From a virus: 64,000 nucleotides of DNA. Under the pieces are notes generated by a model, which was given only the letters and a program-made list of their open reading frames with translations, was not told where the DNA came from and did not search any database. The stretch spans positions 122,367-186,366 of the IMG/VR virus record IMGVR_UViG_3300029288_006769; one strand, written 5' to 3'. Both the position numbers and the translations under genes were made by a program. Positions 5,009-44,268 of this stretch are shown one piece after another (position 1 is the stretch's first letter; each line of letters opens with the position of its first letter).

Positions 5009-5383
5009 TTATACTCCAGCTATTGCTTTAAATTTTATATTGTCTTGTTTAATATCAGGTTTTGGTTGTTCTTCAGGTGAGAGTGGTGGCATAGGGAGTC
5101 GCGACATTCCCATAATTTGTCTTGCTCTTTCTATCTGTCTTGCTTTTGATTCTATAAAAGATTGTTGTCTTTGTCTTTCAGCTTCTAAAGCATCGTGTAT
5201 TTGTATTGCTGAATCAATATAATCTACATATCGTTCTGGATCTCTCAAAACAGTATTCAAGCACGTCTGATGATAATATTGAAATGTAGTTGTATAACCA
5301 GGGTGTTCAACACGTGACAACGAATCGCCACCACATTTACAAAAAAAACATGTTCTGAAGATCCTAAATAAATCAACCGACAT
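5009..5383 (-). CDS. paralog family member 1 (FRIFxxCxxC...YHxxCL zinc-ribbon-like N-terminus)
   Basis: shares an N-terminal motif with the two following ORFs (FRIFRTCFFCKCGGDSLSRV...YYHQTCL). Confidence 0.4.
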   Translation of the reverse strand: MSVDLFRIFRTCFFCKCGGDSLSRVEHPGYTTTFQYYHQTCLNTVLRDPERYVDYIDSAIQIHDALEAERQRQQSFIESKARQIERARQIMGMSRLPMPPLSPEEQPKPDIKQDNIKFKAIAGV

Positions 5384-5716
5384 TCAAGTTCCATTGAATA
5401 TTTGTTTAAATTTTACTAATTCTTCGCTTTTTAAAACTTCTTCAATTGCTTCTTGTTGAACATCTTTAATCCCTTGTAAAGATACAAATTGTTCGCACTG
5501 AAGTTGATGAGCATCACTTATTAATTGGTCATAAACCATTAATGCTTTTTTGATTTTTTTCAAATTATTTTGCGGATCATCAAGAACTCTTTGAAGACAG
5601 TCTTTATGGTAGTAAATATATTTGCCTGCAAAATTTATTCTAGACAAATTATCTTGACTATCGCATACAAAGCATGACTTAAATATTCTAAAAATATCAG
5701 GCATTATCATCTCCAA
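5384..5716 (-). CDS. paralog family member 2 (zinc-ribbon-like N-terminus)
   Basis: IFRIFKSCFVCDSQDNLSRI...YYHKDCL motif shared with neighbours. Confidence 0.4.
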   Translation of the reverse strand: MEMIMPDIFRIFKSCFVCDSQDNLSRINFAGKYIYYHKDCLQRVLDDPQNNLKKIKKALMVYDQLISDAHQLQCEQFVSLQGIKDVQQEAIEEVLKSEELVKFKQIFNGT

Positions 5717-6296
5717 ATATTTTCTTCATCTTGTTTTGTTTATCAATTTTTTTGGGTAGTTCATTGTTTTCTTGTTGTTTACTATTTATAGGTGTTTTTT
5801 TAATATCTATTCTAAACGTAGGAGTCGTTCCAATTCCTACAGGCGATGTAGTTACTGTAGTCATATTCCATGTATAATCATCTGCATAATTTGTAAAATG
5901 AGCTAAATTTTGTGCTAATCTTGACTCGCCTGCTTCTTCTAAAGCTAATCGTATTTGATCATATCTTGTTTCAATTTCTTGTGTTGTTTGCATTTCTTGT
6001 TGGACATCAGATTGTCTTCGAAGTTCTTCTACATGTTGCAAATTTTGTTGTTGTTGCCCGAGAACTAATTGTGTAATTTCATGCGCAATAGTTCTTAAAC
6101 CTTGAGGAATTTCTTGTGTCTGCATTGCTCTCAACAAACAAGAATGATGATAACTAATATAGGGTGGTCCTACGTGGCGTAATCTTTCTGATAATGAGAT
6201 ATGTGTTCTTCTATTACAAAAAACGCATTTTCTGAATATTCTTAGAAAATCAGGCATTTTTCTTCTTCTTTTTAATCTAATTAAAATTTTTTGCAT
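5697..6296 (-). CDS. paralog family member 3 (zinc-ribbon-like N-terminus, Gln-rich coiled-coil C-terminus)
   Basis: FLRIFRKCVFCNRRTHISLS...YHHSCL motif shared with neighbours. Confidence 0.4.
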   Translation of the reverse strand: MQKILIRLKRRRKMPDFLRIFRKCVFCNRRTHISLSERLRHVGPPYISYHHSCLLRAMQTQEIPQGLRTIAHEITQLVLGQQQQNLQHVEELRRQSDVQQEMQTTQEIETRYDQIRLALEEAGESRLAQNLAHFTNYADDYTWNMTTVTTSPVGIGTTPTFRIDIKKTPINSKQQENNELPKKIDKQNKMKKIFGDDNA

Positions 6297-6383
6297 TTGC
6301 TTTTGTCGACAGACTTAGAGCCACAATTTGGACATTTACCATGCTCACCCCTACGAGCAGCATCGCAAGTGTCACACCAAAAC

Positions 6384-6776
6384 TTATGTTTTGTCGCTTG
6401 CTTCGATTTGATTCTGTTCTGCTTTTTTAAGGACATTTACAACTCTTTCAAAATCAAAATTAACAATCTCTTCAGAAATTAAAATTTGTTTGTCTTTATT
6501 TACTAGAGCACAAACATCGCCTTCATTATATGTCTCTATTGAAAGTTCTGCATCTTTCCATAAAAATTTTAAATAAACGCCACTTTCAATAGTACAAGTT
6601 ACTGTTATGGGCTCCAAAGCATAATCTTGAAATAAATAAAAACATACGCCAAACGCATTAAATTTTGCTGTTCTATTAGGTGGTACAGCTCCTTGCTCTC
6701 TCCAATGTTCTGGTAGTTTAAGATTTTCTATTTTGGAATACAAAACTGAAAGAGTTTCAAAATCTGTTATATGCAT
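6384..6776 (-). CDS. hypothetical protein
   Basis: ORF in the operon-like minus-strand block. Confidence 0.3.
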   Translation of the reverse strand: MHITDFETLSVLYSKIENLKLPEHWREQGAVPPNRTAKFNAFGVCFYLFQDYALEPITVTCTIESGVYLKFLWKDAELSIETYNEGDVCALVNKDKQILISEEIVNFDFERVVNVLKKAEQNQIEASDKT

Positions 6777-6782
6777 TTTCTC

Positions 6783-7037
6783 TCATTTCAAAAATAACAT
6801 TGCAATCCAAGTAATAATAGTAACGGGCAAACTTAACTGTCCAAATGCCGGTACAAGTCCAATCAATGCGCCATGCCACCATAAAACAACTGGATCTTTG
6901 TCTGCAAACACAAGCCAAGTATTGATTGCATAGGGCCAGCAAAACGCACCAATAAAAGCGCTAATACCAAGTCCTATACTTATTGTTCCTCCACAACCTA
7001 AACCCATAGCTGCTAAAGTCGCTCTCAAACTAGACAT
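6783..7037 (-). CDS. small hydrophobic/membrane protein
   Basis: 84 aa, almost entirely hydrophobic segments. Confidence 0.3.
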   Translation of the reverse strand: MSSLRATLAAMGLGCGGTISIGLGISAFIGAFCWPYAINTWLVFADKDPVVLWWHGALIGLVPAFGQLSLPVTIITWIAMLFLK

Positions 7038-9046: not shown

Positions 9047-10092
9047 AACCAGTAAGGCTCCATTCCTATATTATTGATTATGCTTTCTATTGTCATTCTT
9101 ATACCAGTTTCTAAAGGGATATACCCTTGATTACTTGCAAAATCTATCTTACAATAACGAAGTTTATCGTCAGACATGTTATGATAATGCAAGTAATCTC
9201 TTGTCCCATCAAAATCAATCCAATCATCTATATGTCTATAAAAAACATCTGGGACGCAAATTCCTCGTACTGCAAATCTGTAAGCAACAAATTCAAAAAG
9301 CTCGAACCAAGTTTTTGAATTTGTATGATTTTCGCCTATATTAAAAACAGGGCGATGTGAAGCACCACCAACGCAAGGAATTGTGTTGTCAAGCAATCTT
9401 TGTGCAAAACTCAAAATACATGTTGCTATATTTTCGACTCTCGTATAAGATTTTGCAGTTCCTTTATTTAACAAAATTTTAAGTTTATGGTTTGCTGGTT
9501 GAGTGATATTCTTGTACATGATATAGATAAATTTTGTTAGAGCACTATGCAAATCATCAGGATAATTTCCAAATCCAAAGACAGGACGTAGTACCAGATG
9601 TTTTGTGTGACATGTATTTTTTACTATCAATTCTCCAGCATATTTGGTAATACCATAAAGAGTTTGGGGATTGATTTTTGTTTCTTCTGTCATTGGTTTC
9701 CTGGGCCCATAATCAGAAGGATCAAGTATAGCTGTAGTCGACAAATAAATAAGCGGTATTTCATATTTATTACAAAGATCAACTATATTCTGCGTACCGA
9801 CGACGTTCGTCCTTATAGCAAGACTAGGGTCCGAAGAACAATAATCAGTTCCAACAAATGCGCCTGAATGAATTACTAGATCTAAATTGCCCCAGGGCGC
9901 TCTTATCAGGTGAGACGTATCAAGGAAATCAAGTTCAGGTTTCCTTACTTTAAAACTTTGGTGCGTTTTGAATGAGTCTAATAGTGTGTGTTCTAGTTGT
10001 GTATTGACAACTTCAAAACCAAAATTCTTTGCTATCCTTTGCATTTGCATTGGAATTGTGCCCGATTCTCCAGTTATTAAAATCTTTTTCAT
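9043..10092 (-). CDS. NAD-dependent epimerase/dehydratase (extended SDR)
   Basis: Rossmann ILITGESGTIP and catalytic YxxxK (YGITK). Confidence 0.75.
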   Translation of the reverse strand: MKKILITGESGTIPMQMQRIAKNFGFEVVNTQLEHTLLDSFKTHQSFKVRKPELDFLDTSHLIRAPWGNLDLVIHSGAFVGTDYCSSDPSLAIRTNVVGTQNIVDLCNKYEIPLIYLSTTAILDPSDYGPRKPMTEETKINPQTLYGITKYAGELIVKNTCHTKHLVLRPVFGFGNYPDDLHSALTKFIYIMYKNITQPANHKLKILLNKGTAKSYTRVENIATCILSFAQRLLDNTIPCVGGASHRPVFNIGENHTNSKTWFELFEFVAYRFAVRGICVPDVFYRHIDDWIDFDGTRDYLHYHNMSDDKLRYCKIDFASNQGYIPLETGIRMTIESIINNIGMEPYWL

Positions 10093-10673
10093 TTTTGCTC
10101 CTTGCAGGCTTGTATTATAAAAGCTTTATATTCCTCTGGTGTGCTTCTCTGATAAGAAAACACATAGCTTGGATGCCATATAGATCTAATAGGTATTTTT
10201 ATATTGTTCTCTAGACATAGATCTAATAGTATTTCAAAAACTTGTCTGCCCATAGCAATAATGATATGAGGTTTCAAGACATTAATTTCTTCTAATAAAA
10301 AAGAGAAGCAAGCTCGAGCACAAGAATTATTTATCGCATTAGTAGATGTAGAGCAGTGAATTACATTGTCGCAAAATATCTCGTCAAACATACCTGTTTC
10401 TTTTAAGAGGTTGTTAAATTTTTCACCAGGCCCAGGGCTACCATTTACTCCTCCAAATGCGTATTCATGTCCAGCAAATCGGTTGTATGAAGGATTCATC
10501 CCGATAAACATAAAGCGGCACTTTTTAGTGCCGCCTCTCCAACCATAAAGTTTTCCAAAACCTTTAGAAATATCTTTTTTGTTTTCTTCTAGATTACATA
10601 ACTCACACTTAGTACAGACTTGAATTTTTTCATTAATCTTTTTTAAGCCGTTTTCTACTTTTGGACTGAACAT
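10089..10673 (-). CDS. uracil-DNA glycosylase superfamily protein (family 4-like)
   Basis: N-terminal CTKCELC, GMNPS...GSPGPG...LL motif region, C-terminal IWHPS motif. Confidence 0.5.
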   Translation of the reverse strand: MFSPKVENGLKKINEKIQVCTKCELCNLEENKKDISKGFGKLYGWRGGTKKCRFMFIGMNPSYNRFAGHEYAFGGVNGSPGPGEKFNNLLKETGMFDEIFCDNVIHCSTSTNAINNSCARACFSFLLEEINVLKPHIIIAMGRQVFEILLDLCLENNIKIPIRSIWHPSYVFSYQRSTPEEYKAFIIQACKEQK

Positions 10674-14379: not shown

Positions 14380-15378
14380 TCATTTGCTCTCGAAAAGGCT
14401 TTTGTCTTTTGGATCAAGTTTATCGTAATCATTTTCTGTATACTTTACCCAACCGTCTCTTGGAACTATTTCGACATATTTTGCTAACTCATTATAATCT
14501 GAACAACTTCTATTGAATTCAGAATATTCAACTTCGTCTGGCCAACGACCACAACCAGCAAACAGATTACTAAAATACTTTGTCAATCCTTCTGCACCAC
14601 CATGATAAATACATTTCTTTGCTCCATCGCATGCAGGTCGTAAATAATTTGCAATCAAAGGAGTCTGTTTTTTGATTTCTTCTCTCAATTTCCAATACAT
14701 AAAAACTATTGGAGATTCTTCACAAGCCATAAGCCTTCTTGCCATTTGACCTTTTAAAGAAAGCAAATCAATAGAAGTAGTAAACGAATGATTATATGAC
14801 ATAGGAAGAACAGCTCTTGCTGTTTGATACGAACCACAACCAAGATTCAAAATTTCACTATATAGATCCTTTGTTGCTTTCAACCAGCTTTCAAATCTTG
14901 ATTTTAAATCTGGCTTATTTTGAATTTCTTCATATAGTTCTGGGTACAAAATTAAAGGAGCTTCAGTTTTCGCGTTGTCTCTACAGCCAATACTCTGGTG
15001 TGCGGCAAGTCTGACCCTCGCGTGTTGGTCAAACATGTGCCTTGGGCCACCATTGACACCGAATTGATATTTTACATTTTCCATTGCTAAAGGTAATGTT
15101 TCACCTTGCAATGAACTTAAAACCACAATGAATCTATTTATTGGAGACAATTTTTCCCATTTATGACAAGATCCTTCGTTAGCTCCTATTTTTGCTGAGC
15201 CCCACGTAGAACAAGCTGCATTCACAATATTTTTATACGGGTTGCAAGGCGAATCAAAAACTTCGACAGTCAAAGCATCATAAACGCTTAAATAATCATA
15301 GGTAACATTAGGAGTTCTATCTGGTAGAGTGTCAAGTGCTTCTCTTATGTTGTCGATTTGTTCTTTAGACATTGACAT
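14380..15378 (-). CDS. hypothetical protein
   Basis: 332-aa ORF; no confident motif. Confidence 0.35.
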   Translation of the reverse strand: MSMSKEQIDNIREALDTLPDRTPNVTYDYLSVYDALTVEVFDSPCNPYKNIVNAACSTWGSAKIGANEGSCHKWEKLSPINRFIVVLSSLQGETLPLAMENVKYQFGVNGGPRHMFDQHARVRLAAHQSIGCRDNAKTEAPLILYPELYEEIQNKPDLKSRFESWLKATKDLYSEILNLGCGSYQTARAVLPMSYNHSFTTSIDLLSLKGQMARRLMACEESPIVFMYWKLREEIKKQTPLIANYLRPACDGAKKCIYHGGAEGLTKYFSNLFAGCGRWPDEVEYSEFNRSCSDYNELAKYVEIVPRDGWVKYTENDYDKLDPKDKSLFESK

Positions 15379-16588: not shown

Positions 16589-16941
16589 TTTCTGTTATAC
16601 ATTGCTGTGTTAGAAAGGAAACTGTTTTTCCAGTCCCATTCGTCAAGGAAAAACTTGTCAAAGTCATGACTTGAGATTTCTACTTCATCTCTGACTTCGT
16701 ACTCTACCATTTTTATAGCTTTTTGATACTCTTTTGCGTAAGAAACTGGTTTAGGTAACCTGACATCAATTACAGTTTCACGTGCTTTGTCAGAATTAAG
16801 CTCATCAAGAATATTATGGAGAGCTACTTTGCATTTTTCAATCCAGCCAAGTAAAGCTTCTTCATAATCTTTTTCATGTTGGGCGAGATTTTTGTTAAGG
16901 ACTTCAAGAACAGTTACTTTTTTAACTTTAATCATTTCCAT
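16585..16941 (-). CDS. hypothetical protein
   Basis: ORF, 4-bp overlap with the downstream gene. Confidence 0.3.
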   Translation of the reverse strand: MEMIKVKKVTVLEVLNKNLAQHEKDYEEALLGWIEKCKVALHNILDELNSDKARETVIDVRLPKPVSYAKEYQKAIKMVEYEVRDEVEISSHDFDKFFLDEWDWKNSFLSNTAMYNRK

Positions 16942-17046
16942 AGTTTCCTCCTTTGATGTTCTAAATTATATCAAGTGAGGAAAATAAATTCACAAGTTTG
17001 TATTGGATTTATTTTTAAATATAAAAAACTTAAAAGAGGAGAAAAA

Positions 17047-17601
17047 ATGCTTAAAATCGACAATATTGATGTATTAACTCGTTGGACAATGGTAATTGAT
17101 GCTGCAAAAACTACTATTGGCAAGATAGCATCTAAGAAAGAACCTACATCGCATTGGAAGAAAATGATACTTCTTGCAGAGCATTCACCCATAAGAATTC
17201 TTTTAGTGAAGTGGAAATGGGTTGAAATAAAATATTGGGTGAGCGTCCATTTTGTAAGACATAAAATTGGGATAGAACATTTTGTCAAATCGCAAAGATC
17301 AGACCGTACAGGCAATAATCGAGAAAATTCTCCCCAGAATTCTCTAGTCGATCATGAGTGTGTTGCGAATGCTCAATCTATTATTAATATTTCAAGAAAA
17401 AGGCTTTGCAACAAAGCATCTAAAGAAACACGCGAAGCTTGGCAAATATTCTTGGATAATCTAAAATTAACAGAACCAGAACTTGTAAGCGTGTGTGTGA
17501 AAGAATGTTTATATAGAGGGCACTGTTACGAATTTGATTCGTGTGGTTATGTGAACACAGAAGATTATGCAATAGAACTTAATAATTATAGGTCGTTATA
17601 G
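17047..17601 (+). CDS. ThyX-like protein (flavin-dependent thymidylate synthase family, short/divergent)
   Basis: AAGAGGAG RBS before Met at 17047. HSPIRILLVKW...SVHFVRHKIGIEHFVKSQRS aligns with the T. maritima ThyX segment HETPFEH...RQWFRHRIASYNELSGRY, which contains the RHR...S..R motif. Confidence 0.45.
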   Translation: MLKIDNIDVLTRWTMVIDAAKTTIGKIASKKEPTSHWKKMILLAEHSPIRILLVKWKWVEIKYWVSVHFVRHKIGIEHFVKSQRSDRTGNNRENSPQNSLVDHECVANAQSIINISRKRLCNKASKETREAWQIFLDNLKLTEPELVSVCVKECLYRGHCYEFDSCGYVNTEDYAIELNNYRSL

Positions 17602-17612
17602 AAATAAATTTT

Positions 17613-18392
17613 ATGAGTATATACAAAATAACAAATTTATTAAACAACAAGATTTACGTTGGAAAATTAAAAGACACTTCTGTTTTTGAAACTTATTGGG
17701 GTTCGGGAATTCTTATACAACGAACTATTACAAGATATGGTATAGAAAATTTTAAAAAAGAAATATTAGAAGAAGTTGCCGATGCAAACATAAATGACAG
17801 AGAAAGATATTGGATCAAACTATTTAACGCTTATGATATTAAAATCGGATACAACTTAACTGAGGGTGGAGAAGGTGGTGATGTTTTTTCTAAAAAACCA
17901 GATTATTTAAAAAATATCACTAGAAAGAACATGTCAAAAGCACGTAAAGGTATGAAACAAACTCCAGAATGGATAAAAAATAGAATAGGTATGATTACAG
18001 GACCAAGAAATGGAATGTTTGGGAAAAAACTATCTGAAGTCACTAGAAAAAAGATAAGTTTGAAATTAAAAGGCAGAAAATTTACAGAAACACATAAGAA
18101 GAACATGTCCAACAGTAAAATTGGTAATAAAAACCCAATATACAAGATTTTAGCAGATCCCAAAAAATATAGAAATTTTGTGAACAAAATGTCAGCAGTG
18201 ACATCTGGTAGTAACAACCCAAGAGCATTGAAAATAATTAGATCGGACATGCATGGAAATGAAACATTAAAAGAAGCTACTTTATCAATTGCATCGACAG
18301 ATAAAAATATTTATTATCAATCAAGAAAAATAAAAGAAGCAATTGCTAATAATATGCTCCATAAAGAACACAAGTGGAAATTTGCGGAATAG
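17613..18392 (+). CDS. GIY-YIG homing endonuclease with NUMOD-like C-terminal repeats
   Basis: IYKITNLLNNKIYVGK...YWGSG...NLTEGGEGG, then repeated K/R-rich DNA-binding modules. Confidence 0.8.
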   Translation: MSIYKITNLLNNKIYVGKLKDTSVFETYWGSGILIQRTITRYGIENFKKEILEEVADANINDRERYWIKLFNAYDIKIGYNLTEGGEGGDVFSKKPDYLKNITRKNMSKARKGMKQTPEWIKNRIGMITGPRNGMFGKKLSEVTRKKISLKLKGRKFTETHKKNMSNSKIGNKNPIYKILADPKKYRNFVNKMSAVTSGSNNPRALKIIRSDMHGNETLKEATLSIASTDKNIYYQSRKIKEAIANNMLHKEHKWKFAE

Positions 18393-18444
18393 TAGGGACC
18401 TTTCGGTCCTTACCAATTCCGCTGCAACTCCTGGGTAGGAAAGA

Positions 18445-19224
18445 TCAGTTGAAGAAGGAGTTATTCGCTCCGCCGACGGTTGTCTGACTGGTTCTTATGA
18501 CGGATTTGCTCACCAGATCGACAGTCCTGCGTATTTCGCTCTCGGTAGCGTCAACTGTCATTTTGTTGATGAACCCGACGGAATCAGCAATTGCACCAAG
18601 ATCATCATTGGGATCCTGCTTATAACCGATATAAACAGGGTAGAATCCCTCTTTTTTCAGTGATGCATCGACGACTGTTTTGCAATCGTCAGCTGAATGC
18701 TTGCGCGAATCATTATCGTCACCATCTGAAAAAACTGCAATGATGATTTTTGACCGTACACCACTACTCTTCAGATCCTTGGCGTAAGCTTGCGCTCCGG
18801 TCAATGCATCCATAAGAGCATCATACAGCGCCGTTGAACCACCTTTTGCAGCATACTGTTTTTCGATGGGACCGATATCTGTGGATTTTTTGAACCCATG
18901 GAGGATGGTTGCCCGTGTCGAAAAAACAACCGTACTCACGAGAATCGAGCCACCCTGTTTTGAGCCTTTGAAGGAATTGATGAATTTGTCGTAGCATTCC
19001 CTGACGGTATTCTCATGCATGTTCATCGACAATGAACCGTCAAGGAGCACCTTAACCAGGGTGACATCGTCCGTTTCGATATCATCTACCGAAGCGCCCA
19101 AGCACCCGGTGAGATTTGTTCCGTTCAAACTGTTGATCATCAATGCTGATGCGGCCGGATCCATTGTCTGATCGTTCTGAAACAAGGATTGAATATCACC
19201 AACAGTTGGTTGACTTCCTGCCAT
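18445..19224 (-). CDS. von Willebrand factor A (vWA) domain protein
   Basis: MIDAS DxSxS (LLDGSLSM). Start placed at the internal Met preceded by an AGGAAGG RBS. Lies in a higher-GC segment. Confidence 0.55.
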   Translation of the reverse strand: MAGSQPTVGDIQSLFQNDQTMDPAASALMINSLNGTNLTGCLGASVDDIETDDVTLVKVLLDGSLSMNMHENTVRECYDKFINSFKGSKQGGSILVSTVVFSTRATILHGFKKSTDIGPIEKQYAAKGGSTALYDALMDALTGAQAYAKDLKSSGVRSKIIIAVFSDGDDNDSRKHSADDCKTVVDASLKKEGFYPVYIGYKQDPNDDLGAIADSVGFINKMTVDATESEIRRTVDLVSKSVIRTSQTTVGGANNSFFN

Positions 19225-19243
19225 ATTAAACCGCCTTCCTATT

Positions 19244-20185
19244 TTAAAAGATTTTGTCTGTGCTATTGACGATGTGTACGCCTTCTTTGATGAAGCCGTC
19301 GAACTGTGCTTCAGCAATAGCATCGAAATCGACATCCGGATTCTTGACCGAGCTCATGCAGTTTCTCAGGATCCATATCTTCTCGAGAATTGCAGTCTGT
19401 CCCTTGAAGAAAGCGATCAGCTGCCTGAGGGATTCAAGCACGCAGTGCGACTTTGCTTCGCCGACGACTATGATTTTGTCGTATTTCCCGAGTACATTGC
19501 AGAATCCCGTATTGATACCGGATGCCCTGGGGTTTTTGGGTACCAGGACTTCGGGCCGGAAAATACCATACATTTCGGTTTCCGGTACGTCGCCTTTGAT
19601 TTGGAAACTGATTTGCGACCGGCGAATCAATGCGTGGTAGTAAAGGATTTCATAGAGCGCCGGTACGAGAGCATGTCCCGGTGTACCGAGCATGGTGTGT
19701 TCCGGCCAGATAATCAGGGGCTGTTTGGTTTGTGCTTCGAGTGTTTTGATGTAATCAAGCGACCATACAGGGTCGATGACCGGTTTGAATTTGCCTTTTT
19801 CCACGTCTGCGGCCGTGATGAACGTGAACGGCGCCGGATGCTGACCTTTTTCATCGAGCCACCAGTTCCCGTAGAAAATTTGGAAAACCAGGTGGGTATC
19901 GAGAGTTGGATAGATTGTTGTGATTCTATCCATGTGCTCGAGAATGAAATCGATAATGTTGAACATATCCATTTCAGCATTATCAACGTACAGTTGACCG
20001 GTAGGCCGTGGGCAACAGAAATCCACCTGACAGTCAATTGCGAGTAATGCCGTTCTCTGTCCAGGTTTATCCATTACCGATGGTATTGGAGTAAGGCGAG
20101 CGGCCTCTTCCTTTACCCTGGTGATGTCTGGGACATATAGAGCCCCAATCTTCGACTGATCAAAGAAACTTGGTTTGGACGCCAT
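19244..20185 (-). CDS. isochorismatase-family hydrolase, PncA-like nicotinamidase candidate
   Basis: ALLAIDCQVDFCCP resembles PncA IIVDVQNDFCEGG; catalytic Cys context GEAKSHCVLES. Confidence 0.5.
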   Translation of the reverse strand: MASKPSFFDQSKIGALYVPDITRVKEEAARLTPIPSVMDKPGQRTALLAIDCQVDFCCPRPTGQLYVDNAEMDMFNIIDFILEHMDRITTIYPTLDTHLVFQIFYGNWWLDEKGQHPAPFTFITAADVEKGKFKPVIDPVWSLDYIKTLEAQTKQPLIIWPEHTMLGTPGHALVPALYEILYYHALIRRSQISFQIKGDVPETEMYGIFRPEVLVPKNPRASGINTGFCNVLGKYDKIIVVGEAKSHCVLESLRQLIAFFKGQTAILEKIWILRNCMSSVKNPDVDFDAIAEAQFDGFIKEGVHIVNSTDKIF

Positions 20186-20198
20186 ATCTGAACTCCTT

Positions 20199-22073
20199 CT
20201 ATTTAATAAGTCTTAAAAATTTGGCATCATGTTCCGAAACAGCTAATATTCCATCTTTATATATTGACAAAGAACAACCTGAGTCAACAAATTGTTCAGT
20301 TTCTTTCTTGAGAGTAAATTGTCCTTTTCGCTCGATTACTATCCCGGCATCCGTAGGATGTACTATAGAAGAACCGAGTAGAATTTTCCCTTCGATAGTT
20401 TTCAAGAATGGAGAACTTATTGATTCTTCTTTTTTAGAATCGAGAATTTTTCCTTCATCATCAATCAAATAATAATAGGAATAAGTTCGACCTTTGTCCA
20501 AAGTTTTAAATAAAAACAAGACAGTACCTCTTGAAATTTCAGCACAATACTCAATAAGTTGTCCTTGAATCGAAGGAATTGCAGTTTCGTATCTACCTTT
20601 ACCTGAAAAAACTACAAAATAGTATTGTTGGAATATCCTGTAAAACAAGATACCAAGACCGGATGGACCTACTGCAAACCATGTTTGATTTTGAAGCGTT
20701 TGCATTACGACAGTATCAGTCAGATTGCCTTGTACGACTTCTGTCGCAATCAAAGCTTGATCCGTCAAACGGTATAATTTTGAACCGCTACAACCAATCA
20801 TAGTCTTATGGTCAAATTGTAATGTTGTTGTCTTTGCTACAGGTTTGAGTTGATTACCAGCAAGTTCGACGACCATGAGGTAGTTTGTTCCCACGACAAG
20901 GTAATTTTTGAAGAAATCAAAAACCGTATCACGTTTATGGCCATCCCAAATTTTGTGGGTGTATCGAGCTTTTTCTGTTATTTCATGCACTTTGGTTTGA
21001 CTACCAGCATATTCAACGATAATTACTCTATTGTCCTCAAGAACTTTAGAATAGAGTATTGAACCCTCGGTTTTAAATATTGTTTCAGACAAACATTTAC
21101 CTGCATCTACGGTATGAGTAACCACTATATGGGTTATGAGTGGTGCTGGTTGAACTGTTGTAACAAAGCACACAGGACATTTCGCTCTTCCTTTATAATA
21201 CCAACCGTTACATTGATTGCATTTTTCAAATTGGTTTTTATGTGCTGTTAAAAGAGCAGCCGGTATATCAACCCTTTCGCCAAGCCTGAATATTTTGTCA
21301 AAGATGTCAAGCAATTCTGGGCTTATAGTTTCAGGTTTATTCGAAATCCTTGGATATGTTACTGAAGAATCCATGATATAGATTTTTCTTCTTGCTCTTT
21401 CGACAATAGAATCGTAGGTTGCATGAGTGCCGCCATAAGGGTGTGCTAAAAGTAGACATTTGAAAAGCATGACGGCAAAACTATACCAATCTGTTTCTTT
21501 TGTGAAATACGGTTTATCAGCAAGATTGAGCCCGTAAAGATTTGGATCAAGATAAGTATCTGTTCCTACAGCACATGGCCAATCACCAACCTGGAACGAA
21601 TCGACATCTATGTAAATAGAACCAAATTTCGGGGTAAACATTACATTCAAATCGTTATTGTCTCCGATAAATAATCTTGGTGCAACATGTATTGCATCCA
21701 TTGTCAGTTTTGAGTCTACAAAAAAATCAATAATATCATTAGGAGTGATTTGTTCTGTTTTCCTGAATTGTTTATTGGAAAGATTGATTACTTCTTTACC
21801 TTTTGCTAAAGGCATGGAAAATCCCACGATGTCATTACCTCTTGCGTCCAAGATGACATCAATGGGATAAGCTATATTTGTTGGGAGTTTAAGACTTGAA
21901 CCCACTTTTATAAATGCTAAAAGTTTCTCAGCCCTCGTTTTTGATGGTTGATGATAAACTTTTAGAGCTACTCCTTTATGAAGGACTACAGTAGCTTCAC
22001 CACCGACACCTAATGCACTGGTATCATCTACTAAGATCTTGTCATTCTTGTAGATTACTGTTTTGGTCGCCAT
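20199..22073 (-). CDS. Ser/Thr protein-kinase-like domain protein with large C-terminal region
   Basis: glycine-rich loop LGVGGEATVV followed by ALKVY (VAIK-like Lys); catalytic-loop motifs atypical. Confidence 0.4.
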   Translation of the reverse strand: MATKTVIYKNDKILVDDTSALGVGGEATVVLHKGVALKVYHQPSKTRAEKLLAFIKVGSSLKLPTNIAYPIDVILDARGNDIVGFSMPLAKGKEVINLSNKQFRKTEQITPNDIIDFFVDSKLTMDAIHVAPRLFIGDNNDLNVMFTPKFGSIYIDVDSFQVGDWPCAVGTDTYLDPNLYGLNLADKPYFTKETDWYSFAVMLFKCLLLAHPYGGTHATYDSIVERARRKIYIMDSSVTYPRISNKPETISPELLDIFDKIFRLGERVDIPAALLTAHKNQFEKCNQCNGWYYKGRAKCPVCFVTTVQPAPLITHIVVTHTVDAGKCLSETIFKTEGSILYSKVLEDNRVIIVEYAGSQTKVHEITEKARYTHKIWDGHKRDTVFDFFKNYLVVGTNYLMVVELAGNQLKPVAKTTTLQFDHKTMIGCSGSKLYRLTDQALIATEVVQGNLTDTVVMQTLQNQTWFAVGPSGLGILFYRIFQQYYFVVFSGKGRYETAIPSIQGQLIEYCAEISRGTVLFLFKTLDKGRTYSYYYLIDDEGKILDSKKEESISSPFLKTIEGKILLGSSIVHPTDAGIVIERKGQFTLKKETEQFVDSGCSLSIYKDGILAVSEHDAKFLRLIK

Positions 22074-22806
22074 TTTGTTTCTCGATTACTATGCAAGTTG
22101 CGTCATCCCCAAAGAGTTTTTGATCATGCCACAAATTGAACTTTCTTTGAAGTTGACGTTTGTGCGTTCCATATAATTGCGAATCTAATCCATTATCAAT
22201 AAGAGGCTGAATTCCATCTGTCCCTATGATAATGGAATCAATTTCGTTTTGATCAAAAACTTTTATTGTAAAAAAACTAAGTTCAGTTGGCCGTTTTTCA
22301 AGGGCTTCTTTGGGTATGGCCTTGTATGCAATATATTCAGGTGTTCCTGCTTGATGAATTTCGTGTATTTGTTTATTTAAAATGATGATTCCATCACCAC
22401 AATTTCCGACAATTACTTTGTCGTTTACCAAGATAGTAAACAGACATGTACTCAAAAGCATTTCCTTGACAAAGGAAATGCGTTCTGGTACCCAAACGTC
22501 ATCAAAGAACAGAACCCCGAGAAGACGTTTTACAAAAAGATCTAATTCATATTCGATTAAATCTTTTAAACGTTCGGAGTCAATGACTTTGAATTTAGCA
22601 TCTTGTAAAGTTCGCACAAAATTTACAATATATGTGCCTATGAGAGTAGCACCCACTTCCGAATATTTACTTTCCCCACACCCATCGCACACTGTCGCTA
22701 CTAAAAGCTCTGGTGTTTGATGGGAATGAGCAAAGTCCTGCCTATTCTTAAATGAGAGCTGATGGTCTCGACCGACAATAGAAGCAGTGTTAATAAACCA
22801 ATTCAA
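22042..22806 (-). CDS. PP2C-family Ser/Thr phosphatase
   Basis: ATVCDGCGES (DGxGG-like) and C-terminal IIGTDGI. Confidence 0.45.
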   Translation of the reverse strand: MNWFINTASIVGRDHQLSFKNRQDFAHSHQTPELLVATVCDGCGESKYSEVGATLIGTYIVNFVRTLQDAKFKVIDSERLKDLIEYELDLFVKRLLGVLFFDDVWVPERISFVKEMLLSTCLFTILVNDKVIVGNCGDGIIILNKQIHEIHQAGTPEYIAYKAIPKEALEKRPTELSFFTIKVFDQNEIDSIIIGTDGIQPLIDNGLDSQLYGTHKRQLQRKFNLWHDQKLFGDDATCIVIEKQNGDQNSNLQE

Positions 22807-22818
22807 TGCTTTTCTCCT

Positions 22819-23214
22819 TTAATAATTGAGAAGCAGTTTGGCGCCCTTGGAATTTGACAGATCAATGACCAACGGTCCCAAAAGAGTTTTGAGAGCTGTC
22901 TGGTCAGAAACCGTTTTCCACCTGCGATTGATATGCGTATGTGCTGCCTGAATAGAAATCAGATCGCTTGCACGCCTGCCGTAACAACGCCGGATGAAAC
23001 CGACATCATCATTCTTTGTCGCAAATTCAGCAAGGACATAACCCTTTTTGGTAGGCAAAACGCCGATACCGTTGAGGCGCATGTTCCTGATGATTCGGAA
23101 TATCGAGCACGGTCTCAAATGACACCGTTCTGCTAACTGTTTTGCTGTCTGGTACTCATTTTCGATAAGTGCCTGATGCACCTTCTCTACCATTTCAATT
23201 GACCTGGGTTTCAT
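22819..23214 (-). CDS. winged-helix DNA-binding protein
   Basis: YQTAKQLAERCHLRPCSIFRIIRNM HTH-like segment. Confidence 0.3.
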   Translation of the reverse strand: MKPRSIEMVEKVHQALIENEYQTAKQLAERCHLRPCSIFRIIRNMRLNGIGVLPTKKGYVLAEFATKNDDVGFIRRCYGRRASDLISIQAAHTHINRRWKTVSDQTALKTLLGPLVIDLSNSKGAKLLLNY

Positions 23215-23642
23215 AGTCCTCCTTGCATCGTTAAAGATTCACGGAAAATTGCGGCTGCTTCGCTTGCTTCGATTAAAGCGGTCGCGCTTTTTTGATAGAA
23301 AAGAGATTTCTTGAGCATATCAGCGAGATTTGCAACATCTTCAGAAGATAAATTTTTGATTTTCTTTGAAAAACCTTGAGGTAACGAAAACCCTGCAGGA
23401 AAGGCCGGAGGTTCATGCTGATCGACAACAGCAAGAAGATTCGATTTCCTCGTTCCTATAATCTTATACTTAAAATCGATACTTTTGATTTTTTGCCCAG
23501 TTTTCTTTTCGTTGAAAGCAAAAACTGCACTATATAAAGACTGCTTTGTTATATTGAGAGCAGTTAAAATTTCAGGTGCTGTCATACCGTCCGGATTTGC
23601 TTCTAACAATCGGGCTATTTTAATTTGAACTGTTTCTTTCAT
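23211..23642 (-). CDS. hypothetical protein (possible HTH)
   Basis: ORF overlapping neighbours by 4 bp. Confidence 0.25.
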   Translation of the reverse strand: MKETVQIKIARLLEANPDGMTAPEILTALNITKQSLYSAVFAFNEKKTGQKIKSIDFKYKIIGTRKSNLLAVVDQHEPPAFPAGFSLPQGFSKKIKNLSSEDVANLADMLKKSLFYQKSATALIEASEAAAIFRESLTMQGGL

Positions 23643-23866
23643 TTTTCACTGTTCCTTTTTTGAAGGCCAAGTTTTAATAGATATCTTATTTCATTTTGAA
23701 TAGTACGGTCGTCTTCTGCAGCAGCTTCAATGATTTCTCGATATGTTTGTTCTGTTACACGTAAGCTCGTCATGCCCAGTGTAGCTATCAATCTCTCTCC
23801 ACTACTTTTCTCAACAGTTTGTTTTTTCATATTAGCATTACGTATATTTCTATGTCGCATTTGCAT
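23639..23866 (-). CDS. small hypothetical protein (possible ribbon-helix-helix)
   Basis: 75-aa ORF. Confidence 0.2.
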   Translation of the reverse strand: MQMRHRNIRNANMKKQTVEKSSGERLIATLGMTSLRVTEQTYREIIEAAAEDDRTIQNEIRYLLKLGLQKRNSEK

Positions 23867-23966
23867 GCGTGGATTGAAACATATGAACTATAATCTATAA
23901 CATTTGCACAAACAAGGGTTAACAAAAATTCACATTTTTTTACCTTGTTCGAACAAACAAAATAGT

Positions 23967-24329
23967 CTAAAGTTTTCGGTGAGCTTCGTCAATGTCAGTT
24001 TTGTACATCTCAGACATTTGATTCAAAAACTTAAGAGTTTCTTGATCATTCATCTGAGGCATGAAAGAAAGGTTTGTAGGTCCTAATTTGACAAGTGGCT
24101 TTGCAGTGCCAAACGGTTCGCCAGTATCCCAATGAAATTCTTTTGTAAGATATGTTGGTCCATCTAGAACCCAGCAACCATTTTTTATAACATAGGTAGG
24201 TCTTGAATTTTCTCTACTAATTTTAAAAGAGTTGTCTTCTCTGCAAAAAATACCCAATTTGGCATTTCTTGCAGAGATGATATACAGAAAACCATCCTGA
24301 CATTGTTCTAATGGAATATATTCCATCAA
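23967..24329 (-). CDS. hypothetical protein
   Basis: ORF. Confidence 0.25.
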   Translation of the reverse strand: MMEYIPLEQCQDGFLYIISARNAKLGIFCREDNSFKISRENSRPTYVIKNGCWVLDGPTYLTKEFHWDTGEPFGTAKPLVKLGPTNLSFMPQMNDQETLKFLNQMSEMYKTDIDEAHRKL

Positions 24330-24706
24330 TAACCTGTAGCCTGACGCTCGAAATTGATTTCTTGCTTTTTACGAACTTCTTCTAAAAGTTCTGCAGCAGT
24401 CATGTTATGTGTAAGAGCCATATCCATTACGAAAATAAACATATCAACAATTTCCACTTTGATTTCTTTTTCATCTTTGCCATCTTCTTGAGTTTTATGC
24501 GATTTGTAATTACCAACAGCTCCCATAAACTCAGCTACTTCTAAGAACAACAAAAAAGCAAGTTCCTTTGAAAACTTTGTTTTTTGTTTTTTATCAAATT
24601 CATGCAATAATCTGTTTGACCAATCACCTTTTGAAATCAACAAGTTCTCAAACTCTTCTTGTCTCTTATAAAGTCGCTCAAATATGCTGTCCACAATCTC
24701 CTCCAT
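24326..24706 (-). CDS. MazG-like nucleotide pyrophosphohydrolase candidate
   Basis: all-alpha ELAFLLFLEVAEFMGA...EIVDMFIFVMDMA pattern. Confidence 0.35.
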   Translation of the reverse strand: MEEIVDSIFERLYKRQEEFENLLISKGDWSNRLLHEFDKKQKTKFSKELAFLLFLEVAEFMGAVGNYKSHKTQEDGKDEKEIKVEIVDMFIFVMDMALTHNMTAAELLEEVRKKQEINFERQATGY

Positions 24707-26519: not shown

Positions 26520-28202
26520 TTAGAATTTTGAAAGTTTCCATGACTGAGCAATTGGTATTCTTCGTCCAAAACCAAATGCTTTCCTATGTAATTTAATACC
26601 TAAAGGAGCCTGCCTGCGTTTGAATTCGGCGTTCTTGATTAGCTGACAGACTCTTTTTACTGCTTCAGGATGTTGATCAGCAATAATTTTGTATTTTTCG
26701 TATTCTGCAGGATCTAACCAGTCGCCTTCAATAAAGAGCTCGAGCAAAGCATCAAGAACAGGATATGGTGGCAAACTGTCGACGTCCTTTTGTCCGGGAG
26801 CCAATTCAGCGGAAGGCGCCTTATCAATGATCGCTTGTGATATTGCTCCCGGGTATAATGTGTTATAATAAGCAGCCAGTTCATAAACTTTCATTTTGGG
26901 TAGATCGGAAATTGGAGAGAGACCGCCGCACATATCCCCATACATAGTACAATATCCGACAGACAATTCGCTCTTATTTCCTGTCGAAAGGACTAAGTAT
27001 CCAAAACGATTCGAGTAAGTCATAAGGATCATGCCACGAATACGAGCTTGCAAATTTTCTTCAGCAATTCCCGTTTTTTCAGGTGTTCCAAAGCATTTGT
27101 TAAATTCTTTGAGAATTGTTTCATAGATTCCCTTAATGGGAAGAGTATGAAAATCTATGCCAAGATTTTTGCAAAGAGCCTCTGAATCTTCATAACTTCC
27201 GGTCGATGAATATTCCGAGGGCATTGTACAACCCATGACTCTTTTAGAGCCAAGAGCTTCTTTTGCAACAGCAGAAACAACAGCGCTGTCTATACCACCA
27301 GATTCTCCTATAGCCACTCCTTTGAAACCACACTTTGTAACATAAGAACGAACACCGCATACTATTTGCTTGAAATAAAATTCGGCATTCGAAGCATACG
27401 GTATATGTTCAATACCACCAGGTGACATGCCATGAGTGTGATAAGCAAGCATTAAAGAATCAATTTCAGATCGTTCCTGAACAAAATCCCCCGACTTGAG
27501 GATTATAGCACCACGTTTGTTTGTGACAAAGCTGTTACCGTCAAAAACAATGTCATCATTACCACCAACCTGATTGACGTAAACAATGGGCATTGCATAT
27601 TGCTTGCTGATCCGCTTTATCATTTCGACTCTTTCTTGATGTTTTCCGACAACAGAAGGAGAGCCGTTGATTGAGATAATGAATTCGACATTTGCATTGA
27701 AAAGATCTTCAACAGGATTTATTGTATAAATTGAATTGTTGTACCACAGATCCTCACAGATAACAATTCCAATACGTATGCCGCGAAATTGAAAAATGCC
27801 CGGTTTTTCTCCCGGTTGAAAATAACGAGACTCATCGAAAATATCATAGGTAGGTAGTAACCTTTTCCTGTAGTTGTATATGACTTCACCTTTATAGCAA
27901 ACTGCAGCCGAATTATAGAGCTTTTTCCCATGGCCTGTATTTTTTTCTACATAGCCGATTATAATTGGAGAATTGATTTCTTTTGTTTGTTCGAGAAACC
28001 ATTTTAATGCTTCGTCTTGATCTGCAAGAAAAGCTGAATAATCGACTAAATCAAGAAGAGGATAGCCAGGGATAGTGAGTTCTGGGAAAACATACATGAA
28101 AACGCCATTGTCAGTTTTTTGCTTTATAAAGTCGATAACTTTTTGAGCATTCCCCATAAAATCACCAACAATCGTGTCGATCTGACATAAGACAATATTC
28201 AT
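26520..28202 (-). CDS. nadE: glutamine-dependent NAD+ synthetase (NadE; CN-hydrolase + NAD synthase domains)
   Basis: 560 aa; PP-loop SGGIDSAV; N-terminal nitrilase-like domain; overall architecture. Confidence 0.85.
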   Translation of the reverse strand: MNIVLCQIDTIVGDFMGNAQKVIDFIKQKTDNGVFMYVFPELTIPGYPLLDLVDYSAFLADQDEALKWFLEQTKEINSPIIIGYVEKNTGHGKKLYNSAAVCYKGEVIYNYRKRLLPTYDIFDESRYFQPGEKPGIFQFRGIRIGIVICEDLWYNNSIYTINPVEDLFNANVEFIISINGSPSVVGKHQERVEMIKRISKQYAMPIVYVNQVGGNDDIVFDGNSFVTNKRGAIILKSGDFVQERSEIDSLMLAYHTHGMSPGGIEHIPYASNAEFYFKQIVCGVRSYVTKCGFKGVAIGESGGIDSAVVSAVAKEALGSKRVMGCTMPSEYSSTGSYEDSEALCKNLGIDFHTLPIKGIYETILKEFNKCFGTPEKTGIAEENLQARIRGMILMTYSNRFGYLVLSTGNKSELSVGYCTMYGDMCGGLSPISDLPKMKVYELAAYYNTLYPGAISQAIIDKAPSAELAPGQKDVDSLPPYPVLDALLELFIEGDWLDPAEYEKYKIIADQHPEAVKRVCQLIKNAEFKRRQAPLGIKLHRKAFGFGRRIPIAQSWKLSKF

Positions 28203-43075: not shown

Positions 43076-43094
43076 ATTTTTACTCGTTAAAAAA

Positions 43095-43166
43095 CTGGGG
43101 TAGAAGGATTTGCACCTCCGACACCCGGCTCCAAGGGCCAGCGTTCTTCTACTGAACTATACCCCA
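43095..43166 (-). tRNA. tRNA-Gln (anticodon read as UUG; loop CCUUGGA)
   Basis: cloverleaf read by eye: U1:A72 acceptor TGGGGTA/TACCCCA, T-loop, anticodon stem CTGGC/GCCGG. Confidence 0.6.
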
Positions 43167-43180
43167 ATAAATTTCAAACT

Positions 43181-43254
43181 AGCCACAAAGAGACTTGAAC
43201 TCTTAACCTACAGTTTAGGAAACTGTGACTCTATCCAATTGAGCTATGTGGCTA
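43181..43254 (-). tRNA. tRNA-Arg(CCU)
   Basis: acceptor AGCCACA/TGTGGCT, anticodon arm ACAGT-TTCCTAA-ACTGT. Confidence 0.7.
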
Positions 43255-43258
43255 AAAA

Positions 43259-43335
43259 TGGTCGGAACGAGCAGAGTTGAACTGCTGACCCCCTGCACCC
43301 CATGCAGGTGCGCTACCAGGCTGCGCCACGTTCCG
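43259..43335 (-). tRNA. tRNA-Pro(GGG)
   Basis: CGGAACG...GGCGCAGCCTGGTAGCGC D-arm, loop AUGGGGU, encoded CCA. Confidence 0.7.
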
Positions 43336-43353
43336 TTGTTCAAAGAACTTAAA

Positions 43354-43428
43354 TCGGAGTGAGTGGATTTGAACCACCGGCCTTGTGATCCCGGATCACA
43401 CGTTCTAACCAGGCTGAACTACACTCCG
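43354..43428 (-). tRNA. tRNA-Pro(CGG)
   Basis: acceptor CGGAGTG/CACTCCG, anticodon arm TGTGA-TCCGGGA-TCACA. Confidence 0.65.
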
Positions 43429-43432
43429 TATT

Positions 43433-43507
43433 CTGGGGTGAGAAGACTTGAACTTCTAACTTCTGGTTTCAGAGACCAGCGTTCTAAACCAATTGAACTA
43501 CACCCCA
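43433..43507 (-). tRNA. tRNA-Gln(CUG)
   Basis: acceptor TGGGGTG/CACCCCA, anticodon arm CTGGT-CTCTGAA-ACCAG. Confidence 0.7.
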
Positions 43508-43513
43508 ATAAAA

Positions 43514-43591
43514 TGGTCGGGATGAGAGGATTTGAACCTCCGACACCTGCGTCCCAGGCGCAGTGCTCTAACCAGACTGAGCTACATCCCG
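43514..43591 (-). tRNA. tRNA-Pro(UGG)
   Basis: acceptor CGGGATG/CATCCCG, arm CTGCG-CCTGGGA-CGCAG, encoded CCA. Confidence 0.7.
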
Positions 43592-43609
43592 TAATTCAAA
43601 GAACTCTAA

Positions 43610-43645
43610 ACAAAACGGCCCCTCTTTTTTGGAGAGGAGCCGTTT
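43610..43645. terminator. GC-rich hairpin flanked by T/A runs (bidirectional terminator-like)
   Basis: AAACGGCCCCTCT-TTTTTGG-AGAGGAGCCGTTT perfect 13-bp stem. Confidence 0.55.
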
Positions 43646-43788
43646 GAAATTTCGTTTTTGTCTTTCAGTTATTTCAACAGCAGCCCTCTCCAGGTTATGT
43701 TCCTGGGTTGTTGTGGTTGCGGCTGTTGAAAAAATATTTTCATAGTTTAAATATAACATAAATTATTGCAAGTGTAAATATTTTTATG

Positions 43789-44268
43789 TCATAATACAAA
43801 AAATTCTGCATAATTGTTTTCATAAAGTCTCATATTGTCTAGAATATTTGGCTCTACTTCTAACATATTGTCTTTTCTAAGAGGATATAAAAAACAATTA
43901 TCCTCTGGGCTCGGATCCATTACGAGAATTTTGTTGTTGTTCTTTTTTATTCGTACTGCATGATTAAACCAAGGCAAAGGACTTCCATTACTTTTATGAA
44001 AAATGATGACAATAACGTCTTGATTGGGATACTTTGAGAATATTTCAAAAGTTTTGATACCTGAATCTTTGTAAATATAGAACCCGTTAAATGTTTCATT
44101 TAGAAAATCATAAGTATTAAGGAGATTAGTTGTGCCAGTTTGTTCAGCAAGCTGAATATTAATATGATATTGATATTCTAAATTTTTTATATAATAAGTG
44201 TTATATGAAATTCTTATATTTATTTTGTTTGTTTTGTTTGTGTTCAAGTTCAGCACCATGGTTGTCAT
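43789..44268 (-). CDS. hypothetical protein
   Basis: ORF. Confidence 0.3.
   Translation of the reverse strand: MTTMVLNLNTNKTNKINIRISYNTYYIKNLEYQYHINIQLAEQTGTTNLLNTYDFLNETFNGFYIYKDSGIKTFEIFSKYPNQDVIVIIFHKSNGSPLPWFNHAVRIKKNNNKILVMDPSPEDNCFLYPLRKDNMLEVEPNILDNMRLYENNYAEFFVL

Follow-up and report, generated by a model that had tools for sequence, protein, structure and literature searches.

Does a sharp rise in GC content within an AT-rich phage genome mark a foreign island, or is it a property of genes that have long belonged together? We addressed this question in a 64,000-nucleotide stretch of DNA, hereafter the window (positions 122,367 to 186,366 of the IMG/VR record IMGVR_UViG_3300029288_006769), which is part of a huge phage. 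At positions 18445-22806 of the window, four consecutive minus-strand genes encode a PP2C-family phosphatase, a Ser/Thr kinase, a PncA-type nicotinamidase-like hydrolase and a vWA protein. An earlier note on this DNA, made from the sequence alone, had read the last two genes as a higher-GC island lying beside a kinase/phosphatase pair. We find instead that 18445-22806 is one conserved, ancient and co-evolving cassette of all four genes. On balance, we think it probable that the cassette is a phosphorylation switch of vWA, PP2C and kinase resembling the TerY-P triad of bacteria, coupled to a metal-dependent nicotinamidase that would feed the Preiss-Handler route to NAD+.

The cassette and its GC content

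Two related loci, L005 and L007 (we refer to homologous loci by such handles), carry the genes in the order HTH-HTH-PP2C-kinase-nicotinamidase-vWA, as does the window, where two small helix-turn-helix (HTH) genes precede the phosphatase gene. The earlier note had suggested checking whether related phages lack the island; these two have it, in the same gene order. The order of the cassette genes is further shared by L094, L176, L177 and Candidatus Chlorohelix (L009). Protein identities between the window and L005 or L007 are 92% and 65% for vWA, 91% and 72% for the enzyme, 89% and 56% for the kinase, and 80% and 64% for PP2C, so that conservation within the block is highest for enzyme and vWA. 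Synonymous divergence (dS) from L005 is alike for the four genes, at 0.83-0.90 for the enzyme/vWA pair and 0.84-1.06 for PP2C and kinase. Neighbor-joining trees of the four proteins, each from 32 loci, are congruent: their clades agree from tree to tree, and the window's own phage clade is among them. Synteny, equal dS and congruent trees thus speak against an island that merely sits beside a separate kinase/PP2C pair.

The rise in GC is itself real, and computation bore out the earlier estimate of about 45-50% at ~18400-20190. In 400-nt windows, GC is 0.45-0.50 across 18400-20199, with 0.33-0.39 on the 5' side and 0.28-0.35 on the 3' side. With a GC of 0.473, the segment 18445-20185 exceeds every other 1.8-kb window of the 64-kb stretch (mean 0.345, sd 0.030; z = 5.2), the highest value elsewhere being 0.394, so that the profile is not flat. 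The patch is bounded by the stop codon of the vWA open reading frame (ORF), at 18445, and by the start codon that opens the nicotinamidase-like ORF, at 20185. A second patch had been placed at 22820-23900; it holds for the winged-HTH (wHTH) gene at 22819-23214 (GC 0.457) but not for 23215-23900 (0.364). The nicotinamidase-like and vWA genes have a GC of 0.482 and 0.465, respectively, and in both of them C and G are elevated at third codon positions. Across 66 ORFs, GC at third positions (GC3) averages 0.263 (sd 0.075), and the outliers are 19244-20185 (0.56), 18445-19224 (0.49), 22819-23214 (0.49) and 50138-50692 (0.43). The last of these, on the minus strand with a GTG start, adjoins a tRNA-Leu gene.

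A vWA and nicotinamidase pair that came in recently from a donor of higher GC, and merely ended up next to a kinase/PP2C pair unrelated to it, would account for the sharp, gene-bounded jump in GC and GC3 and for the rise of both C and G at third positions. GC-rich bacterial homologs exist, and a GIY-YIG homing endonuclease gene abuts the vWA gene and could drive co-conversion. Yet relatives at 89% and 56% kinase identity hold the pair at the same place, dS to L005 is the same for the pair as for its neighbors, and in the congruent trees the window's nicotinamidase is nearest to its own phage clade. Nor was a closer GC-rich donor found: after the window's own, 100%-identical cluster, the next one stands at 74%. 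We therefore rejected a recent import, which we consider most improbable. Co-conversion by the homing endonuclease was likewise rejected as the source of the GC, which is raised in L005 without the endonuclease. The antisense ORF at 19274-20047 was dismissed as an overlapping gene, its frame holding four stops in L005 and six in L007.

The same gradient recurs across the family. In L005 and, more weakly, in L007, enzyme and vWA likewise exceed kinase and PP2C in GC and GC3. The GC3 excess of the enzyme/vWA pair extends to the distant phages L140, L095, L004 (LR756511) and L171 and to L024 and L031, two moderately AT-rich contigs of bacterial-labeled metagenome-assembled genomes (MAGs); it is not present in GC-rich bacteria. 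We conclude that the enzyme and vWA genes have had their raised GC for a long time, with no sign of recent import. In an AT-rich phage, a GC3 jump that is sharp and keeps to gene borders may hence, as a caution, be an old conserved codon feature, which is probably linked to expression and need not mean recent horizontal transfer.

Codon usage suggests where such a feature could come from. In the three GC3-rich genes (enzyme, vWA and wHTH), TTC takes an 81% share compared with 23% in the remaining window, ATC 59% compared with 17%, and CAG 70% compared with 20%, while GAC, AAG and GAG are nearly unchanged. In L024, the TTC/ATC bias is found in the enzyme and vWA genes and in none of its kinase, PP2C or other NAD genes. 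The GC excess is most simply explained by codon selection linked to expression; the enzyme and vWA genes, conserved better than their neighbors in the block, are probably also the most highly expressed. Three observations weigh against this cause: the G-ending codons CAG, CCG and AGG are raised too, the wHTH gene differs in its pattern, and the gene for single-stranded DNA-binding protein (SSB) in the same window has no GC3 enrichment. Codon selection is thus an inferred cause, one that leaves the G-ending component and the HTH gene unexplained.

The window also carries 25 tRNA genes within 43094-62223 on the minus strand. Some isoacceptors of this array (Gln-CUG, Pro-CGG, Arg-CCU, Ser-CGA, Thr-CGU, Lys-CUU and Leu-CAA) read G-ending codons, which are rare in most phage genes (2-22%) and enriched in the three GC3-rich genes. 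A link between these isoacceptors and the translation of the three genes is possible.

Proteins and NAD-gene context

The nicotinamidase-like gene (19244-20185, minus strand) encodes a cysteine hydrolase of 313 aa, which we recognized by family profile and fold. Residues D51, D96, H98, W160, H163, K197 and C248 are the same throughout the 39 family members aligned. Of these, D51/K197/C248 make up the catalytic triad, aligning to the motifs DMQNDF, KG and YCV of Pnc1, and D96/H98/H163 are the metal ligands; the stretch 'WPyHt' aligns to 'WPvHC' of Pnc1 and 'WPpHC' of Mtb PncA. Searched on its own against the PDB with phmmer, the enzyme gave noise only and the family profile was needed: built from the 39 sequences, it matched best to yeast Pnc1 (1.6e-7), Mtb PncA (1.7e-5) and P. 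horikoshii PncA. The AlphaFold (AF2) model (pLDDT 94.6) adopts an isochorismatase-like alpha/beta fold. Its nine best Foldseek matches in the PDB and the tenth-ranked Drosophila entry are all nicotinamidases, with 2wta (3.8e-12; TM-score 0.78 on the target), Pnc1, Leishmania PnC1 and P. horikoshii PncA at the top. Profile search and fold thus support the PncA-like label that the gene had been given. In PncA, the metal binds the free pyridine nitrogen of the substrate, and a metal site of this type therefore favors free nicotinamide over nicotinamide mononucleotide (NMN) or NAD. Judged from sequence and model, the protein is most likely a metal-dependent nicotinamidase, converting nicotinamide to nicotinate.

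With PncA and Pnc1 (PDB 2wta, 2h0r, 3pl1, 1ilw), the enzyme shares the fold, the Asp-Lys-Cys triad, a metal site made of Asp-x-His and WPxH, and a neighborhood with NrtR, PncB-like and NadE genes. It differs from them in size, at 313 aa compared with ~180-215 aa, having a conserved N-terminal extension (1-42) and an insert of ~55 residues (~100-155), and its identity to solved nicotinamidases is 15-20%. A conserved N-terminal segment of the enzyme reads PxFYDPxKVGxLYxP. Unlike in PncA and Pnc1, the gene is tied to a vWA gene and, in part of the family, also to a kinase/phosphatase pair.

This vWA gene (18445-19224, minus strand; phrog_7371) always lies directly downstream of the nicotinamidase-like gene. 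Its start is the ATG at 19224 rather than 19335, in agreement with public gene calls, giving a product of 259 aa and therefore no overlap with the upstream gene. The Pfam VWA match is above cut-off (6.9e-8), and the residues of the metal ion-dependent adhesion site (MIDAS), D-x-S-x-S, T and D, are invariant in 32/32 homologs. The same 32 homologs have a C-terminal tail with invariant S276, S278 and S283 (numbered on the longer ORF; S239, S241 and S246 from the ATG at 19224) and a terminal Phe. Within 3868-5645 of L178, a plasmid of Peptoclostridium acidaminophilum, a distant vWA homolog (26% identity) is encoded directly downstream of an annotated O-acetyl-ADP-ribose deacetylase, a further tie of vWA to NAD/ADP-ribose metabolism.

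The PP2C gene (22042-22806, minus strand) has a TTG start and overlaps the start of the kinase gene by 32 nt; public calls give the same product of 254 aa. It matches Pfam PP2C_2 (PF13672) at 3.9e-16, and the motifs RQD, DGCG, GTDG and GDD are visible.

The kinase (20199-22073, minus strand; 624 aa) consists of a Hanks-type domain (1-280), a four-Cys zinc ribbon (285-302) and an all-beta domain (326-623), with no transmembrane segment. Pfam Pkinase matches its C-lobe only, at 1e-5 (25.5 compared with a cut-off of 31.7). In an alignment of 40 full-length homologs, G24, G25, E26, K38, D138, N143, D156 and D158 are invariant, as are the ribbon cysteines C285, C288, C299 and C302 directly after the kinase domain. 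Recognizable motifs include the Gly loop GVGGEATV, the VAIK-type K38, the catalytic D138 and N143, the Mg-binding D158 and DWYSFA, which resembles DxWSxG of the C-lobe. In the catalytic loop IGD138NNDLN143, IGD replaces HRD; the conserved columns do not include the alpha-C Glu. The AF2 model (pLDDT 88.5) comprises the kinase domain, the zinc ribbon and the all-beta domain. Foldseek relates the kinase domain to the eukaryotic protein kinases AAK1, BRAF and PKA (TM-score 0.5-0.67) and the C-terminal domain to DDB1 propellers, the top match overall being the kinase-WD40 half of LRRK2; on this model we read 326-623 as a beta-propeller. The vWA/MIDAS protein, the PP2C phosphatase and the Ser/Thr-kinase-like protein with an atypical catalytic loop, all three named in the earlier note, are thereby borne out.

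We then looked at the company the cassette keeps. In the window, a gene for glutamine-dependent NAD+ synthase NadE (26520-28202, minus strand; 560 aa; NF010588 at 612 bits, cut-off 479; phrog_36784) lies 3.7 kb upstream of the cassette on the same strand. NadE catalyzes the last step of the deamidated, or Preiss-Handler, route that a nicotinamidase feeds. NadE lies 4-10 kb from the cassette in the phages L007, L095, L096, L098, L167, L171, L002 and L176, bringing the count with the window to at least nine phage lineages. In L024 and L031, NAD kinase, a small ORF and the ADP-ribose-responsive repressor NrtR (NF050029, 180 bits; Pfam NUDIX and NrtR_WHD) lie upstream, and a Nudix ADP-compound hydrolase, an NAPRTase-like (PncB-like) protein and NadE lie downstream of the cassette. 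NrtR also adjoins the enzyme gene in L022, L042, L050, L053, L084 and L086 and in the viral contig L171. L084 carries an NAPRTase-like gene ahead of nicotinamidase-NrtR, and L171 has NadE and a second isochorismatase-family gene besides.

In the huge-phage contig L177 (256,855 bp), a WGR-PARP protein (526 aa) and a fusion of a cytidylyltransferase-family (NMNAT-like) domain with MazG are encoded just upstream of the cassette, at 1570-2475 and 5367-6947, which would place an NAD+ consumer beside a nicotinamide-removing enzyme. The L177 kinase occurs also on a contig of up to 557 kb. At 188-736 of the window, on the minus strand, a 182-aa P-loop protein matches PF13521 (AAA_28), to which the ribosylnicotinamide kinase domain of NadR also belongs; this is possibly another NAD-salvage gene.

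NrtR regulons classically hold pncA, pncB and nadE, and an nrtR-pncA operon has been described in a Chloroflexi genome (PMC2330246). In L024, L031, L084 and L171, the cassette or its enzyme stands at the position that pncA has in the NrtR-controlled NAD salvage I operons (nrtR-pncA-pncB-nadE; PMC2330246). Classical NrtR operons, in contrast, have no kinase, PP2C or vWA genes, and the window phage has small HTH genes in place of NrtR. Because of its neighborhood of NrtR, PncB-like, NadE, NAD kinase and PARP genes, we read the enzyme as a true nicotinamidase that would feed the Preiss-Handler route. For manipulation of host phosphosignaling or defense, which the earlier note had thought of, we found no specific sign; the genes that are conserved around the cassette, in bacteria as in phages, are those of NAD salvage.

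The enzyme family is widespread. A word-indexed protein search returned 673 clusters at E <= 0.001. The family is encoded in at least 595 species-representative genomes, mostly of Chloroflexota and Polyangiaceae (Myxococcota) with occasional others such as Planctomycetota, and in about 100 IMG/VR contigs, many of them phages of 200-600 kb. We counted operons in the best 80 bacterial loci of those genomes and in 80 viral loci. All four genes are present in 58 of the viral loci, either in the window's order or as enzyme-vWA-PP2C-kinase, and three in a further nine. The bacterial set holds the full PP2C-kinase-enzyme-vWA operon in 15 loci and the enzyme-vWA pair in eight. In Candidatus Chlorohelix, the full operon is flanked by housekeeping genes.

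A proposed switch on nicotinamide salvage

As proposed, the cytoplasmic kinase would sense a signal through its propeller, likely the sensor, and phosphorylate either the vWA protein, where the invariant Ser residues of the C-terminal tail are candidate sites, or the enzyme itself. The MIDAS site of vWA would read a phosphorylated or acidic ligand and gate the nicotinamidase, and PP2C would reset the switch. The obligatory adjacency of the enzyme and vWA genes suggests that vWA is the adaptor between switch and enzyme. Once active, the enzyme would turn free nicotinamide into nicotinate for the Preiss-Handler route back to NAD+, with the phage NadE supplying the last step. In this way, the cassette could keep NAD+ supplied during replication of the ~420-kb genome, and it may recycle the nicotinamide set free by host immune NADases as they cleave NAD+. 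What we observed are the folds, the catalytic residues, the synteny and co-evolution of the genes and their NAD-gene context; to these we add a substrate, phosphorylation partners and a role in infection that we infer.

The switch part of the proposal draws on TerY-P. In the passages of PMC10542128 and PMC11090510 that treat it, the TerY-P triad consists of a TerY-like vWA protein, a PP2C phosphatase and a Ser/Thr kinase with a C-terminal zinc ribbon, and is proposed to act as a phosphorylation-dependent switch; in the stand-alone defense version (Gao et al. 2020), as PMC10542128 relates it there, an OB fold replaces the ribbon. The earlier suggestion that a vWA-kinase-PP2C triad is a bacterial signaling module agrees with these descriptions. 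The cassette resembles TerY-P in its three co-directional and co-inherited genes, the complete MIDAS of vWA, the catalytic acidic motifs of PP2C and the four-Cys zinc ribbon directly after a Hanks-type kinase. Unlike TerY-P, it has a fourth obligatory gene, that of the nicotinamidase-type hydrolase, always before vWA; its kinase has an additional ~300-aa beta-propeller after the ribbon; and its context is NAD salvage and housekeeping, with no ter genes, McrBC or HEPN partners. The resemblance is architectural, and no match at the level of sequence was found. Among 72,556 plasmids, a tblastn search with vWA met with distant generic vWA proteins and with no gene annotated as TerY. With PADLOC 2.0.0, whose TerY-P models were not checked, vWA and PP2C had no match at E<=0.1 and the kinase had only weak matches to PD-T4-6 and mad6 (E about 1e-3). 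What is new here is the combination of a TerY-P-like switch with a PncA-like enzyme, both kinds being known separately; in our literature search, incomplete in coverage, vWA and PP2C turned up in no paper together with a nicotinamidase or isochorismatase.

Much of the conflict between phages and bacterial immunity is fought over NAD+. Three pathways by which phages rebuild NAD+ have been reported since 2024, NARP1 and NARP2 (bioRxiv 10.1101/2024.02.11.579819) and NARP3, made of PnuC and a NadR-like protein (PMC13464706), none of which involves nicotinamide deamidation or post-translational control. Jumbo phages also carry Preiss-Handler clusters of pncB-nadD-nadE (PMC11662467), and pncA is mentioned among their NAD synthesis genes (PMC11662467, PMC7824862). 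The cassette would be like these pathways in that phage-encoded enzymes rebuild NAD+ from breakdown products. It would differ from NARP1-3 in starting with nicotinamide deamidation and ending with NadE, and in the proposed protein-phosphorylation switch, as the NARPs have no kinase control; unlike theirs, its link to counter-defense is pure conjecture. An unlikely extension of our proposal is that the cassette is a signal-gated fourth route of NAD+ reconstitution in phages, in which cleavage by host NADases (TIR, SIR2 and similar) would be detected by the propeller or the MIDAS and the nicotinamidase turned on, leading from nicotinamide through nicotinate and nicotinate adenine dinucleotide (NaAD) to NAD+ via the phage NadE. 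If true, this would be the first phosphorylation-controlled counter-defense metabolism of a phage, borrowed from an as yet undescribed bacterial switch of NAD homeostasis. Should the proposed coupling of switch and enzyme hold, TerY-P-like triads would gain a defined metabolic output, a phosphorylation layer of NAD homeostasis would be revealed in bacteria, and huge phages would gain a regulated salvage or counter-defense module.

Several points weigh against the proposal of a switch coupled to a nicotinamidase. In PADLOC, NCBIfam and the plasmids, nothing was matched that would connect the triad with a characterized TerY-P. The switch is optional, the enzyme standing alone in 55 of the best 80 bacterial loci, and neither pncB nor nadD was seen in the 64-kb window of the ~422-kb genome. 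The enzyme scores 20.9 bits against Pfam Isochorismatase, below the gathering cut-off of 27, has no NCBIfam match and is ~100 residues longer than PncA, so its substrate could differ.

This last point leads to a different amidase whose likeness to PncA is coincidental, acting by deamidation on NMN or NAD, on a modified base or on a signaling amide. The extra residues at the N-terminus and in the insert, the low identity to solved nicotinamidases and the sub-threshold Pfam score would all suit such an enzyme, and biuret, maleamate and carbamoylsarcosine amidases have the same fold. Set against this are the best structural and profile matches, which are nicotinamidases, the PncA-typical Asp-His-His metal site, whose invariance disfavors N-ribosylated substrates, and the NrtR/PncB-like/NadE context, which fits pncA (PMC2330246); we regard another substrate as quite unlikely. 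The triad could otherwise be a phage-borne system of defense or superinfection exclusion similar to TerY-P, sensing a competing phage and using the amidase as effector. Phages frequently bear defense genes, the weak PADLOC matches of the kinase point in this direction, and TerY-P-like triads are described in the relevant part of PMC10542128, citing Gao 2020, as stand-alone anti-phage systems and as companions of CoCoNuT restriction systems. We nevertheless hold this to be very unlikely: a nicotinamidase neither depletes NAD+ nor kills cells, no PADLOC model matches vWA, PP2C or the enzyme, bacterial copies lie among housekeeping and NAD-salvage genes rather than in defense islands, and in the phage the cassette sits in a block of replication and nucleotide-metabolism genes.

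We have equally little faith in host takeover, by which the kinase and PP2C would act on host proteins, with vWA and the amidase as accessory or unrelated genes. Some phage Ser/Thr kinases do act on host proteins, T7 gp0.7 being one, and the propeller could recruit host substrates. The identical four-gene operon is, however, found in free-living bacteria, where takeover is meaningless, and the four genes strictly co-evolve, with the enzyme-vWA pair always adjacent.

Flanking genes and the replicon

The genes of the block are all on the minus strand and closely packed, with overlaps of 4-32 nt and gaps of 12-19 nt. A tight run of seven genes begins with a 75-aa ORF (23639-23866) that has no family match. 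It is followed by a small HTH-like protein of 143 aa (23211-23642), with weak HTH_23/MarR_2 matches, ordinary GC and a clade-specific occurrence, whose gene overlaps each neighbor by 4 nt. The wHTH protein comes next (22819-23214; 131 aa; weak HTH_24 match); its gene lies 12 nt upstream of PP2C and has homologs only in L005, L007 and L094, the window's own phage clade. L007 carries an additional gene for a 121-aa DUF7694 protein (9639-10004) between PP2C and kinase, which is in neither the window nor L005. PADLOC and NCBIfam assigned no family to any of the four cassette proteins, none of 50,697 phage records was matched by 16900-24400 in a Megablast search, and a scan of 18000-24600 for promoters and terminators detected fewer of them than shuffled sequence contains.

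Besides its tRNA genes, the replicon encodes a DnaE-type polymerase, ThyX, dCMP deaminase, uracil-DNA glycosylase (UDG), SSB, ParB and a helicase. Identical copies exist in the 422-kb JGI contig Ga0378408_0000018 and in GenBank JAQUND010000010.1, part of a MAG labeled 'Candidatus Nanoarchaeia archaeon', and relatives carry labels such as Promethearchaeota and Spirochaetales. The GenBank copy and these relatives look like huge-phage contigs that were mis-binned into cellular MAGs, evidently so for the Nanoarchaeia copy.

The GIY-YIG/NUMOD3 homing endonuclease gene is free-standing (17613-18392, plus strand) and convergent with the vWA gene. It is absent from this place in the 89%-identical L005 and lies after thyX in L007, and is therefore a mobile insertion. 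Two ThyX-like genes are present, a regular Thy1-family member at 14380-15378 (minus strand) and a divergent one of 208 aa at 16975-17601 (plus strand), which has only a weak C-terminal Thy1 match and is 54% identical to its L005 homolog. The UDG-like gene of L007 (19119-20825) bears an intein (Hint/Intein_splicing with a DUF559 endonuclease), and its ortholog in the window, at 10089-10673, is intein-free.

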